Shown here in pieces: positions 6,203 to 14,661 of a DNA stretch of 64,000 nt (the stretch's first letter is position 1; every line of letters starts with the position of its first letter). The notes beneath the pieces were generated by a model. The model did not search any database and had not been told where the DNA came from. It saw nothing but the letters and a program-made list of their open reading frames with translations. A program made the translations under genes and the position numbers. This DNA is from Shigella phage ESh15. The stretch lies in sequence record ON528725. One strand, written 5' to 3'.

Positions 6203-7674
6203 GGTCCAAATACGTCTTCAAATGAATCCGCTTCTGTTTTATCAAAACGGAACCCTTTAATAATTGGAAGGAAAATACCTACAGTACCTTCACGGCCTTT
6301 AGAATGAACCCAACCATTACATTCACAATCAGCGATACGTCCAATTAATTTACCTTCACGAGCTTCAGTCATTAATCGTTCACGGTCTAAATCATGACGC
6401 TCGTCTAAAGGAATAAGAACCTTTACACCGTCAACTGTTTTATGAGTTGTATCTTTAAAACCTGAACCACAATCGGTTGTAATACGACGACAACGTGATA
6501 CGAGTTCGACACCACCTAATTTGTTAGGGTCCTTAGAGTGTTCATAGTATCCTACAACTTCTAAAGCGATATCAATAACTTCTTTAAATTTAATTAGGTT
6601 CTTAGAGCGTTTGTTTTCCCAATATGAATCACGGTTTTTAAGGATAATACCTTCAAGACCTTGGTCAACATATTTTTTATAAACCACTTTAGCTTCGTCA
6701 AGATTATGAACTAACTGATTTTCAATTGGCTCAATTCGTTTAAAGCCTTCAGCCATATTTTCAAGAGCAGCAAAACGAACATCATATTTCTGACCTTTAA
6801 TTTTGCCATCAGAATAGACTTCATCTAAAGGAACATAGTCCCAGGCTTGAAGAACCATACCTTCAGCTTCTTTAGGAGAAATAGTCCCTTGAAGAGATTT
6901 ATTTGCTAAACCGTTTGAAGTGCTACGGTCCGCAACTTGTACTTCTTCGGATTCTTCATTATCACCAAATAAGAACGACAGGTCATTTCCTGAGCTCACA
7001 GCCTTTTTAATATCAAATGAATGGTAAACTAATTCACCGTCGATTAAAACCCCATTAGGGTGTCTTTCACGGGCTTCTTTAGTCATTTCCATTAGTTCAT
7101 CCGCTAATAGAGTAAGACCATGGTATTCATTACCAGCACGAGAAAAGAATTGAACACCATCATCGCGAACTTCAGCGAAACAACGAGCACCATCTGCTTT
7201 TAATTGGGCAAATGCGGGCCATTTAATATTTTTAGTAATCAATTTCTCATCATATGCGGATGCTAACATCTGTGGTTGCAATTGAATAAGTCCAGGCCAT
7301 ACCTTATTCGCGATAGACACTGAAGCACCTACTTCAAGGTCGCGCATCATTACACGACGAAGGACTTCTACATCATCAGGTTTACCGTCAGCGATATAAC
7401 CCATGAGCTCTTTAATTGCTGCATTACCGGTGAGTTTACGAGTGGCCAATGTGAACTCAATAAAATCCAACATGTCATCTAATTCAAGAAGACCATACGC
7501 TTGAGACCTTTCACCTGGTCCTGGCCATTTCTTAATATAATACTGGATACCACGTGCATATGTTAAACGATACACACGTTCAAGTAATTTGTTGTCCTTA
7601 TTTTTCTTAAGGATTTCCTGTTTTGTTTTAGTAGAACCGATCGCAGCTATTTGGTTTAAAATATCTAAAATCAT
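6181..7674 (-). CDS. 30: ATP-dependent DNA ligase gp30
   Basis: 497 aa (T4 ligase 487 aa); adenylation motif KADGAR present (FAQLKADGARCFAEV). Confidence 0.95.
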   Translation of the reverse strand: MILDILNQIAAIGSTKTKQEILKKNKDNKLLERVYRLTYARGIQYYIKKWPGPGERSQAYGLLELDDMLDFIEFTLATRKLTGNAAIKELMGYIADGKPDDVEVLRRVMMRDLEVGASVSIANKVWPGLIQLQPQMLASAYDEKLITKNIKWPAFAQLKADGARCFAEVRDDGVQFFSRAGNEYHGLTLLADELMEMTKEARERHPNGVLIDGELVYHSFDIKKAVSSGNDLSFLFGDNEESEEVQVADRSTSNGLANKSLQGTISPKEAEGMVLQAWDYVPLDEVYSDGKIKGQKYDVRFAALENMAEGFKRIEPIENQLVHNLDEAKVVYKKYVDQGLEGIILKNRDSYWENKRSKNLIKFKEVIDIALEVVGYYEHSKDPNKLGGVELVSRCRRITTDCGSGFKDTTHKTVDGVKVLIPLDERHDLDRERLMTEAREGKLIGRIADCECNGWVHSKGREGTVGIFLPIIKGFRFDKTEADSFEDVFGPWSQTGL

Positions 7675-12375: not shown

Positions 12376-12684
12376 TTACATAAGAAGCAAACGTTCTACC
12401 GGAGTACCATCAACCGAAATTACTTTATCAAGGCGGAAAGAACGCCACTGACCTAACTTGGTATCGAATGCTCGAACTGATTCACGAGGTTCATAACGAA
12501 CTTCTGTTGCCGGATTGTTATTTTCATATTTGACTTCAAGTTCATCGCGCGAAGCAAACATAGTGCGTACCTCACCGTTAGCCTTTTCAAATACAACACA
12601 ATGAACGCCTACAGACAGAATAGTTTTAATACGTTCACGAAGAACCATAGTTTCTTGTTCAGTTAAAATCATATTATTCACCAC
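12376..12684 (-). CDS. Hypothetical protein (31.1-position)
   Basis: 102 aa ORF between gene 31 and cd. Confidence 0.5.
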   Translation of the reverse strand: MVNNMILTEQETMVLRERIKTILSVGVHCVVFEKANGEVRTMFASRDELEVKYENNNPATEVRYEPRESVRAFDTKLGQWRSFRLDKVISVDGTPVERLLLM

Positions 12685-13255
12685 AAAAGTTTCGAATTTG
12701 TTCCCAATTCAGAGAACGAAGATTATTACGAGAGTACTGAATTACTTCAATACCAGCTTGTTTAAGAATGTCTGCCCAATTTTCAGGAGATCGGTCATAT
12801 AATTCTGCATATACAACCTTTTTAATACCTGACTGCGTAATAGCTTTAGTGCAATCAGGACACGGAGAAAGCGTCGTATATAACGTAGCACCTTCAATAG
12901 AATTACCTTTACGAGCTGCAAACAAAATTGCGTTCAGTTCCGCATGGATTTCGTTATTAGCAGACCATGCACTATGAGCGGCCCGGTGTTCTTTAGCCAA
13001 AACAAAATTATCGGCCCGTCCAAATGCTGTAGTGCCTTCTTTATGTCCAGCAACGATGACCGGACTTGGTTTATTCTTCAACCAGCCTTGTTCAGTAGCA
13101 TGGTCACAACAGTTTATACCACCTGAAGGAGAGCCATTATATCCAGTAGAGATAATGCGTCCATCTTTTTCAATGACTGCGCCAACTTTCCATGAACAAC
13201 ATTTTGATTCTTGAGAAATCAGATATGCAATCTGAAGGTATGTGCTAGCTTTCAT
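12674..13255 (-). CDS. cd: dCMP deaminase
   Basis: 193 aa, same as T4 Cd; zinc-binding deaminase motifs HAELNAI and SPCPDC. Confidence 0.9.
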   Translation of the reverse strand: MKASTYLQIAYLISQESKCCSWKVGAVIEKDGRIISTGYNGSPSGGINCCDHATEQGWLKNKPSPVIVAGHKEGTTAFGRADNFVLAKEHRAAHSAWSANNEIHAELNAILFAARKGNSIEGATLYTTLSPCPDCTKAITQSGIKKVVYAELYDRSPENWADILKQAGIEVIQYSRNNLRSLNWEQIRNFCGE

Positions 13256-14247
13256 TATTGAACCTTATTAATATAAGTTAACAGCTCTTTAGTTTGTTCC
13301 CAACTGATGCACGCATCGGTAATGGAAACGCCATAGGACATATTATCAGAAATTTTTTGATTTCCTTCATGTAGGAACGATTCTATCATAATTCCTTTGA
13401 CCAAATCATTAGCTGCTAAATTTTTACCAATACCAATTTGATTGCTATAATGCCCATCAGCGTTTGCATGGCTACAGTCAACCATTACATAATGATTCAG
13501 ACCTACTGCCCTTGCTTTGTTAGAAGCTTCTTGAATATCAGAAGAATGATAGTTTGGGCCATTGGTCCCACCACGCAATACGATATGCGTATTCTGATTA
13601 CCTTCAGCTTCAACAATGCCTACAGTACCATCGACGTCCATACCCATATACCGATGAGGCCAGGCGGCACTATACATCGCGTCTGTAGCTACTTTAATAG
13701 AACCATTGGTTGCGTTCTTAAAGCCTACGCACATCGGTAGACCTGAAGCAATTTCACGATGTGTCTGACTTTCAGTCGTACGGGCGCCAATAGCAACCCA
13801 TGAGAAAATACCAGAAAGATACTTAATCGTGAATGGGTCTAATACTTCAGTTGCTAATGGAAGTCCCATACGTAGAAGTTTACGACACAATGTTCGTGCA
13901 ACTATAAGACCGTGGTTCATATCAAAACTTCCGTCAAGATATGGATCATTTACAAGACCTTTCCAACCTACGGTAGTTCGAGGCTTTTCAAAATAAACGC
14001 GCATCACTAACAGAACATTAGGAAGACGAGTTTGAAGTTCAGCCAGACGTTTGCCGTATTCAACAGCAGCAATAGGGTCATGAATTGAACAAGGACCTAC
14101 AACAATAAGTTTGCGTGGGTCTTCACCGTTCATAATCGAATTAACTTGTTCGCGATGAGAAGCCACTTGTGATGCGTAAGCTTCCGACAAAGGAATAATC
14201 TCAGCCAGTTCTTTTGGAGAAATAAGTTTTCCGACGACAGGTAACAT
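13255..14247 (-). CDS. 3-deoxy-D-arabino-heptulosonate-7-phosphate (DAHP) synthase, class I-alpha, AroG/AroF/AroH-like
   Basis: 330 aa; conserved blocks LIVVGPCSIHD, EKPRTTVGWKG, IGARTTESQ, VLRGGTNGPNY, VDCSHAN, IESFLHEGNQ, SITDACISWE match E. coli AroG; stop overlaps the cd start (TAATG). Confidence 0.85.
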   Translation of the reverse strand: MLPVVGKLISPKELAEIIPLSEAYASQVASHREQVNSIMNGEDPRKLIVVGPCSIHDPIAAVEYGKRLAELQTRLPNVLLVMRVYFEKPRTTVGWKGLVNDPYLDGSFDMNHGLIVARTLCRKLLRMGLPLATEVLDPFTIKYLSGIFSWVAIGARTTESQTHREIASGLPMCVGFKNATNGSIKVATDAMYSAAWPHRYMGMDVDGTVGIVEAEGNQNTHIVLRGGTNGPNYHSSDIQEASNKARAVGLNHYVMVDCSHANADGHYSNQIGIGKNLAANDLVKGIMIESFLHEGNQKISDNMSYGVSITDACISWEQTKELLTYINKVQ

Positions 14248-14367
14248 AACAATCCTTAGGAGATATAAACAGATTCTGATTCAACAATACCTTTAACCGG
14301 ATTAGACAGGCTAAGTTGGTAGTGCTCAGATTTATGACCATTCTCTATAGTAATGAGATAGCTCTCA

Positions 14368-14604
14368 TTATAGTGTTCCATATACTCGAGTTGCTTCAAC
14401 AAGACCATCACTGCCTAATTTAAGATTAGTAATTTGGTCACCATCTTTAGGATTAACGATTATGAGAAAAGAACGTGGAGATTCTTGAATAACTCGTAAT
14501 GTTGCATCCTGGAAACGTTCAGACACTTTATTGATGAGTGCTTGAGCAAATTCTTTTACTTTAATCTGAAATTCGTGTACTGTAATTGGATTTTCACTTA
14601 GCAT
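14368..14604 (-). CDS. Hypothetical small protein
   Basis: 78 aa minus-strand ORF with early promoter cassette upstream. Confidence 0.45.
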   Translation of the reverse strand: MLSENPITVHEFQIKVKEFAQALINKVSERFQDATLRVIQESPRSFLIIVNPKDGDQITNLKLGSDGLVEATRVYGTL

Positions 14605-14624: not shown

Positions 14625-14661
14625 GTAGAGTTATAGTACCACAACTCCACCATGTTGTAAA
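14625..14661 (-). promoter_or_regulatory. Early promoter cassette
   Basis: GTTTAC -35 on minus strand; upstream of ORF 14368-14604. Confidence 0.5.

Follow-up and report, generated by a model that had tools for sequence, protein, structure and literature searches.

An AroF-lineage DAHP synthase of Mosigvirus phages, probably released from feedback inhibition

AroF from Escherichia coli (structures 6AGM and 6AGL) is the closest solved relative of a DAHP (3-deoxy-D-arabinoheptulosonate 7-phosphate) synthase encoded by Shigella phage ESh15. The phage gene lies beside the dCMP deaminase gene (cd) in a stretch of 64,000 nucleotides from sequence record ON528725, hereafter the window. The two enzymes are 51% identical over their full length, the residues for binding the metal ion, phosphoenolpyruvate (PEP), and erythrose-4-phosphate (E4P) are identical, and both have glycine at the position of AroG residue 211 and proline at that of residue 147. 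However, the phage protein has an N-terminus that is shorter by about nine residues, two small internal deletions, and a shorter C-terminus, and its gene has a phage-like composition. AroF residues P151, Q152, D156, S181, and F210 are replaced in it by isoleucine, lysine, glycine, proline, and tyrosine, respectively.

Feedback-resistant DAHP synthases made in the laboratory, including the AroG variants P150L, S180F, and D146N as well as N-terminal variants of AroF, are changed at positions shared with the phage enzyme and retain catalysis (PMC9529685). In contrast to these, the phage enzyme is a natural one, has an N-terminal deletion in addition to five or six substitutions, and occurs clade-wide; its insensitivity is predicted from sequence.

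The existence of the gene is already known, and it has been catalogued and annotated. Members of the PHROG 5045 family in Mosigvirus, Kanagawavirus, Marfavirus, Winklervirus, and Bragavirus represent the same gene in the same synteny, with no substantive difference from the window copy. The synthase has been named as an auxiliary metabolic gene of unknown function in Mosigvirus (bioRxiv 10.1101/2020.01.19.911818) and in Kanagawavirus (PMC11845039), while only the domain is noted in PMC8022965. An earlier, sequence-only reading of this DNA had called the gene unusual for a coliphage, a view that does not hold: it is present in several other genera besides some 139 records of Mosigvirus, and it is noted in the literature. 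The contribution of the present analysis is a specific, testable hypothesis in place of "auxiliary metabolic gene of unknown function", as well as a precisely mapped insertion with natural empty-site comparators. Enzyme identity, catalytic residues, the rebuilt site, synteny, the insertion scar, and purifying selection were all computed here.

A looser parallel is offered by T4, whose ribonucleotide reductase is not shut off by dATP. T4 cd is activated by hydroxymethyl-dCTP, according to the T4 annotation. The logic shared with the synthase would be that a phage has its own copy of a host gatekeeper enzyme and that the regulation of this copy is decoupled from host signals. However, pathway and fold differ, and the parallel is an analogy only.

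Enzyme identity and the inhibitor site

The window protein matches the Pfam family DAHP_synth_1 (PF00793) with an E value of 4.3e-75 and 252.6 bits (cutoff 25.5), which settles the profile search proposed by the sequence-only reading. It scores 427.9 bits against the NCBIfam aroFGH equivalog TIGR00034 (cutoff 173.2), 455.3 bits against the subfamily model PRK12755 (cutoff 343), and 606 bits against PHROG 5045, annotated as "phospho-2-dehydro-3-deoxyheptonate aldolase", such that residues 1-330 cover profile positions 8-337 of 341. Among solved structures, E. coli AroF (6AGM) ranks first with an E value of 7e-105 (residues 8-327 against AroF 17-344), followed by AroG with 3e-91; structures from Neisseria, Francisella, and yeast also align, all in a comparison of sequences only. 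The protein is predicted to be a full-length (beta/alpha)8 barrel homologous to the solved DAHP synthases.

For the assignment of subtype, AroF, AroG, and AroH from E. coli MG1655 were aligned with the window protein and five phage orthologs. The window protein is 51% identical to AroF, 47% to AroG, and 44% to AroH. It falls under the cutoffs of both the AroG equivalog NF006723 (363.4 bits, cutoff 568) and the AroH model NF009396 (386.9 bits, cutoff 463) and is thus assigned to neither. The equivalents of AroG Ser211 and Met147 are Gly202 and Pro138, so a Phe-type pocket is not present, and the N-terminal Asp6 and Asp7 of AroG, which are partner-subunit residues, are absent. Residues of this kind reportedly define the allosteric subtypes of AroG and AroF (Shumilin 2002, Hartmann 2003), and Ser211/Met147 versus Gly/Pro, along with Asp6/Asp7, are taken here as markers of the Phe-type and Tyr-type enzymes. 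Neighbour-joining analysis of 128 sequences recovered the phage clade as a monophyletic group in 30 of 30 bootstraps, and its sister is a gammaproteobacterial group that contains E. coli AroF and Pasteurellaceae AroF. On the basis of the subthreshold AroG score, the glycine at AroG-211, and the position beside AroF in the tree, the enzyme is assigned by sequence to the AroF (Tyr-type) lineage and not to AroG. The label "AroG-type DAHP synthase" given by the earlier reading thus stands for the class (class I-alpha) and falls for the subtype, and the phylogeny against AroF, AroG, and AroH that it had proposed places the clade next to AroF.

The metal ligands C53, H260, E289, and D311 (AroG C61, H268, E302, and D326) are all kept, as are the PEP and E4P residues R83, K88, P89, R90, T91, T92, G154, A155, R156, K177, and R225. 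All of these are invariant among the window protein, the proteins of five phage genera, and 24 further phage-clade clusters from a large protein database. The signature blocks CSIHD, KPRTT, GARTTESQ, CSHAN, ESFLHEGNQ, and ITDAC can all be read in the translation of the 330-residue ORF (open reading frame), as had been reported. The phage protein is apparently an intact class I-alpha enzyme, catalytically competent for the condensation of PEP and E4P to DAHP, and the earlier estimate of probable competence is borne out by the conservation of every metal, PEP, and E4P residue.

Inhibitor control appears to differ. A column scan was run over 329 alignable columns in 30 phage-clade and 98 bacterial sequences for positions that are at least 90% conserved in the phage clade, at least 85% conserved in bacteria, and occupied by a different residue in each group. 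Just six of the 329 columns carry such a fixed difference (Table 1), and five of the six lie among 14 positions of the inhibitor site or of feedback resistance drawn from PMC9529685 (Fisher p = 4e-7). AroG P150L and S180F are feedback-resistant, as are F209A and F209S; the side chains of Q151/Q152 and S180/S181 hold the main chain of the Phe or Tyr inhibitor, and D155/D156 makes a stabilizing salt bridge (PMC9529685). The altered combination is found in none of about 98 bacterial relatives.

The N-terminus is altered as well. Ahead of AroG position 16 there are 5-9 residues in the phage proteins and at least 13 in every bacterial relative, and AroG D6/D7 and AroF N8 are missing because of this shortening. 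The N-terminus of DAHP synthase is said to cap the inhibitor site from the partner subunit. An intact Tyr site, with AroF P151, Q152, D156, S181, and F210 and an N-terminal cap containing N8 and I11, is not present in the window protein, whose N-terminus is nine residues shorter. The inhibitor site has been rebuilt, such that aromatic amino acids probably no longer switch the synthase off. Deregulation had already been suggested from the shortened N-terminus; the idea is now better supported, because the alignment shows not only deletion of the N-terminal cap but also rebuilding of the allosteric pocket itself. Of note, codon 6 of the synthase (position 14232, minus strand) encodes glycine in the window protein and arginine in four other Mosigvirus copies (MLPVVGK versus MLPVVRK), and this residue falls within the shortened segment.

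The boundary of the allosteric signature is also the boundary between phage and bacterial gene context. The signature occurs in protein P0020, whose gene sits on a T4-like contig in the order rnlA-alc-pseT-DAHPS-cd. The gene of P0022, which is a partial intermediate at the site, adjoins a T4-type gene, and that of P0024, the nearest protein with a canonical site, adjoins metH and nfuA.

A second phage-borne enzyme is encoded by Aeromonas phage HJ05, which has an unrelated 79-kb genome. Its 387-residue DAHP synthase (L018:2899-4059, annotated as a hypothetical protein) is 37.5% identical to the window protein and 40-46% identical to its own cellular relatives. All catalytic residues are kept in HJ05 and its relatives P0121-P0123, yet changes, among them S180 to proline, have occurred at the same allosteric positions. 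At positions 150, 151, 155, 180, and 209, the HJ05 lineage has A, H/S, P, P, and V, whereas P, Q, D/E, S, and F predominate among its 116 nearest cellular homologs. The HJ05 enzyme differs from the T-even enzymes in having a long His-rich N-terminal extension (MDNHHNKHH...) rather than a truncation and in its genomic context. From these alignments, the change at the same allosteric positions in the HJ05 lineage and the T-even clade looks like convergence.

Two other candidates for independent phage cases were set aside. The 13-kb contig of "Acinetobacter phage MD-2021a" (L019, CAKLQH020000056.1) has a canonical site and bacterial neighbours, its aroF lying beside cobS, a histidine phosphatase, and an alpha-ribazole phosphatase; it is probably a piece of bacterial chromosome to which a phage label was wrongly given. 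The fecal contig MT837410, which is unverified and lacks annotation, was not used as evidence.

Gene context, expression, and the inserted cassette

The synthase lies between the dCMP deaminase gene and the cd/pseT block of small ORFs, as the sequence-only reading had stated. Homologs of cd.2 and cd.3 (79% identical to that of T4) and of pseT are located upstream, and in T4 the interval from cd.2 to cd holds only the 112-residue cd.1. At the DNA level, the region shares about 98% identity with that of Mosigvirus phages such as APCEc01, Shf125875, and mar005p1, Mosigvirus being a genus of T4 relatives that includes RB69. The N-terminus of the synthase cannot be extended, since an in-frame stop, the nearest one, lies 12 codons 5' of its ATG. 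The stop of the synthase (13257..13255) and the start of cd (13255..13253) overlap in CAATAATGAAA; the overlap claimed earlier is thus seen directly, and translational coupling to cd is upheld, with TAA and ATG sharing one base.

Table 1. Features of the synthase locus in the window and residues that distinguish the phage clade
Feature	Position	Strand	Description
Early promoter, sigma-70 type	14633..14661	-	GTTTACA, 17 nt, TACTAT, extended TG; between cd.3 and cd.2
cd.2 homolog (DUF7320)	14368..14604	-	recipient-type copy; 65% identity to T4 cd.2
41-aa ORF (cd.2' fragment), MEHYNESYLITIENGHKSEHYQLSLSNPVKGIVESESVYIS	14256..14381	-	fills an apparent 120-nt spacer; donor-type cd.2 3' half
Left 12-nt direct repeat, TAATGAGAGCTA	14359..14370	-	at cd.2 stop; left insertion boundary versus RB69
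Inserted segment	13258..14370	-	1113 bp, absent from collinear RB69 cd.2-cd junction; cd.2' fragment and synthase
Shine-Dalgarno AAGGA	14253..14257	-	precedes synthase ATG, overlaps stop of 41-aa ORF; read from sequence
DAHP synthase coding sequence	13255..14247	-	330 aa, ATG start; class I-alpha, AroF lineage
Right 12-nt direct repeat, TAATGAAAGCTA	13246..13257	-	spans synthase stop and cd start; right insertion boundary
dCMP deaminase (cd)	12674..13255	-	downstream of synthase; ATG shares one base with synthase TAA
AroG P150	I141		AroF P151
AroG Q151	K142		AroF Q152
AroG D155	G146		AroF D156
AroG S180	P171		AroF S181
AroG F209	Y200		AroF F210
AroG T223	A214		

The early promoter has an ortholog, with which it aligns, in the early promoter annotated between cd.3 and cd.2 of T4; the synthase is the third reading frame downstream of the window promoter. 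A consensus scan of the stretch before the synthase, including the 120-nt spacer, found no promoter- or terminator-like site, and the RNA fold of the spacer is no better than that of shuffled sequence (z = -0.41). The promoter probably drives cd.2, the cd.2' fragment, the synthase, and cd. The synthase is likely transcribed early, together with cd.2 and cd, given the conserved early promoter upstream and the lack of an intervening promoter or terminator in the scan.

The synthase had been described as inserted into the cd operon, and this is demonstrated directly by the empty cd.2-cd junction of RB69 and the 1113-bp alignment gap. RB69 has a cd.2 of the window type and a cd that is 95% identical, and it lacks the synthase. 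At its junction (L022, about 6240..6260) the cd.2 stop overlaps the cd start in CTATAATGAAAGCTAGC, and a single repeat copy is present. The repeat pattern TAATGA(G/A)AGCTA has only two matches in the 64 kb, with 0.01 expected by chance.

The 41-residue ORF indicates where the cassette came from. Along its entire length it matches phrog_15876 (E 1.9e-32), and a second match is to the cd.2 family phrog_1504, in the C-terminal half (E 1.8e-5). Its identity is 41-54% to the cd.2 C-termini of Kanagawavirus and Marfavirus and 26-28% to cd.2 of the window, RB69, and T4, and the homology to donor cd.2 is visible in DNA up to the start codon of the synthase. An origin as a remnant of T4 cd.1 was considered and rejected, as no similarity was found. 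Since the ORF is of the Kanagawavirus/Marfavirus cd.2 type and unlike the cd.2 of the window itself, it is read as a recombination scar, a donor-derived copy of the 3' half of cd.2. The donor-type fragment also indicates that the Mosigvirus cassette was imported from a Kanagawavirus- or Marfavirus-like relative, which fits the 77% identity of the synthases. An ancestor of Mosigvirus would have acquired the cassette by recombination at the cd.2-cd junction, with a left crossover at microhomology between the recipient cd start and the interior of the donor cd.2 and a right crossover within cd. The ORF is annotated in some records, and it may still be coding, for which there is weak evidence: five Mosigvirus genomes show three polymorphisms here, and each of them is synonymous in the frame of the ORF.

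A tblastn search with the synthase returned 212 phage records, 139 of them at 95% identity or more, all from Mosigvirus. Proteins from Kanagawavirus (Enterobacter and Edwardsiella phages) are about 77% identical to the window protein, those from Marfavirus and other Klebsiella phages and from Winklervirus (Serratia and Erwinia phages) 67-70%, and those from Bragavirus (Proteus phages) 58-59%. Most of these records label the gene as DAHP synthase, aroF, or AroG, and annotated proteins, including those of PhAPEC2, APCEc01, and Shf125875, share 98-100% identity with the window protein. It is a member of PHROG 5045 at the Straboviridae cd.2-cd locus both by full-length match and by position. The gene order pseT, small ORFs, cd.2, DAHPS, (0-2 small ORFs), cd, 31.x, 31, rIII is kept in all five genera, namely Mosigvirus, Kanagawavirus, Marfavirus, Winklervirus, and Bragavirus.

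The small ORFs after the synthase vary. In the Winklervirus Serratia phage X20 (L006:4498-4836), a cd.1 homolog (E 2e-10) separates the synthase from cd and, at its start, overlaps the end of the synthase by 20 nt. The Bragavirus Proteus phage PM2 (L007:4457-5016) has two small ORFs between the synthase and cd, and in Bragavirus a homing endonuclease is found directly downstream of pseT.

The presence/absence survey of T-even relatives that had been suggested earlier gives about 139 Mosigvirus records with a filled site versus about 11 with an empty one. The junction search places RB69, ECO111 5-P, several vB_Eco_mar005P1, JK42, JK36, and moha among the latter. An empty junction also occurs in more distant phages, e.g., WG01 and QL01. 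The cassette is carried by APCEc01, OZ035759, mobillu, mogra, and JK45. Thus, the synthase is accessory yet strongly prevalent, and the cd.2-cd interval behaves as a hot spot of gene gain and loss. Presence of the cassette varies even inside the nominal species mar005p1.

The base composition of the synthase (40.9% GC, 28.7% at third codon positions) is similar to that of cd (40.2% and 25.8%), in contrast to E. coli aroF (51.8% and 50.4%), and no bacterial protein exceeds about 55% identity to the window synthase. The ratio of nonsynonymous to synonymous substitution rates (dN/dS) is 0.16 between two Kanagawavirus copies; within Mosigvirus, where pairs have only 5-14 differences, it scatters from 0.2 to 2.7 and is uninformative. 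On the basis of the phage-like composition, the limited bacterial identity, and the dN/dS of 0.16, the gene is interpreted as an old, selected resident of T-even relatives and not a recent capture from a host.

Proposed function and rival explanations

The favoured explanation, held with moderate confidence, is that a working, feedback-insensitive synthase of the AroF lineage is made early, feeds the shikimate pathway, and belongs to an accessory cassette obtained from a related phage. Loss of inhibition, early expression, and metabolic purpose are the deduced parts of it. The synthase would be produced from a T4-type early promoter in translational coupling with dCMP deaminase, and Tyr, Phe, and Trp would fail to inhibit it. 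After the shut-off of host transcription, it would keep PEP and E4P flowing into the remaining shikimate enzymes of the host, whatever the state of repression by TyrR and TrpR and of inhibition by Tyr, Phe, and Trp. Chorismate would thereby be supplied for aromatic amino acids and possibly for para-aminobenzoate and folate, as well as quinones. The folate link is attractive as frd, td, nrdAB, and cd are neighbours (frd, td, and nrdAB at about 10 kb), and it is speculation.

If this is true, the shikimate-pathway gatekeeper carried by T-even relatives is naturally insensitive to feedback, which would be a clear non-marine case of a virus overriding the allosteric control that its host exerts on amino acid or cofactor synthesis. 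Such an enzyme would also be a naturally evolved, feedback-resistant scaffold for the bioproduction of aromatic compounds. Natural pairs give direct access to the phenotype: RB69, moha, JK42, and JK36 lack the gene, and mobillu, mogra, and JK45 have it.

Several points weigh against this explanation. The literature searched holds no enzyme assay, structure, expression data, or phenotype for any phage member, only passing annotation remarks. Other shikimate genes were not found in the first 50 kb of the related APCEc01 genome, in which frd, td, and nrdAB are nearby, and the identity of the relevant downstream product is entirely inferred. Since about 11 Mosigvirus records, RB69 among them, lack the synthase, any benefit must be conditional. 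The part that the N-terminus plays in inhibition is taken partly from earlier reports (Shumilin 2002, Jossek 2001). Altered sites are not exclusive to phages, as some bacteria (Cobetia-type enzymes) likewise have them. Moreover, conservation at the site positions exceeds that in the remainder of the phage protein (entropy 0.37 versus 1.01, p = 0.017), and the pocket residues D146, P147, L179, and G211 are kept. Judging from this pattern, the pocket is not decaying in phages and could still bind a ligand; it is fixed in an alternative state and could be either locked open for structural reasons or binding something new.

This conservation suits a pocket that has been re-specified and remains allosteric for another effector, such as a nucleotide, a folate-related or another phage-relevant metabolite, or chorismate/prephenate. 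Phage sequences with as little as 56% and up to 98% identity to the window protein still agree at the six clade-specific residues (conservation of at least 97%), and Lys142 and Tyr200, both new, bring polar and charged groups to a site that keeps the four residues named above. By analogy, T4 cd and ribonucleotide reductase are generally known to have altered effector specificity. However, the active site and the dimer interface lie next to this region, and structural demands alone could account for its conservation; the pocket has lost its N-terminal cap, the sequence points to no candidate ligand, and the replacements in HJ05 (A, H, P, P, V) differ, which fits loss of the site better than a shared new specificity. 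A re-specified pocket is considered unlikely. In another rival, the enzyme is valuable mainly as an unregulated sink for E4P and PEP: the drain on E4P would draw the transketolase and transaldolase reactions toward the pentose phosphates needed in phage DNA synthesis, with chorismate only incidental. The gene is situated in the early nucleotide-metabolism region and coupled to cd, the phage supplies the committing step alone, deregulated DAHP synthases are generally known to make DAHP accumulate, and the transaldolase genes of cyanophages are generally thought to be comparable in purpose, though only by analogy. The sink is pure conjecture, however, the location may be a mere insertion hot spot (T4 has cd.1 there, RB69 nothing, and X20 the synthase plus cd.1), and the consumption of PEP is costly; it is judged improbable. 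Should either apply, that is, a pocket re-tuned to a phage-relevant effector or a sink that pushes the non-oxidative pentose phosphate pathway toward ribose-5-phosphate, which together are given a rather low likelihood, the synthase would have been co-opted into T-even nucleotide metabolism, and this would explain its junction with dCMP deaminase.

Feedback insensitivity must also be weighed against an ordinary Tyr-sensitive isozyme of the AroF type, which would add capacity under host-like regulation. The AroF lineage, the Tyr-type glycine at AroG-211, the proline at 147, and a fold and pocket scaffold that appear to be kept overall would agree with it. However, the glutamine and serine that hold the inhibitor are replaced by lysine and proline, the position of the resistant variant P150L is isoleucine, D155 is glycine, the N-terminus is truncated, and this combination occurs in none of about 98 bacterial relatives, which leaves an ordinary isozyme with little probability. 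Two further alternatives are poorly supported. The sequence-only reading had raised a diverged substrate preference for arabinose-5-phosphate, akin to that of 3-deoxy-D-manno-octulosonate-8-phosphate (KDO8P) synthase (KdsA), feeding a sugar for DNA modification, to which surface modification was added here as a possible use. Although PF00793 spans both DAHP and KDO8P synthases, no KdsA family is among the NCBIfam matches at E <= 0.001, which are DAHP synthase models only, with the aroFGH equivalog far above its cutoff. Since no KDO8P synthase model matches and the E4P motif KPRTT is intact, with all class I-alpha substrate residues invariant and 51% identity to AroF over the full length, activity on arabinose-5-phosphate is unsupported and very improbable. 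A non-functional or neutral passenger recently acquired from a host is scarcely credible: the gene is indeed accessory, being absent from about 11 Mosigvirus records, yet it is only 51% identical to host AroF and fully phage-like in composition, monophyletic across at least five genera with catalytic residues intact and a dN/dS of 0.16, and the filled site is the commoner one (about 139 versus 11 records).

Neighbouring features

Scans of the whole 64-kb window for tRNA genes and, at the gathering threshold, for Rfam families returned zero of each; therefore, the T4-type tRNA cluster is either outside the window or absent from the genome.

Positions 12376..12684 (minus strand) encode a homolog of T4 31.1 (WYL_2 / SH3 beta-barrel, PHROG 1086). 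Many GenBank records label it as "tail fibers protein", apparently via a weak match to phrog_10657, and this label is probably a propagated misannotation.

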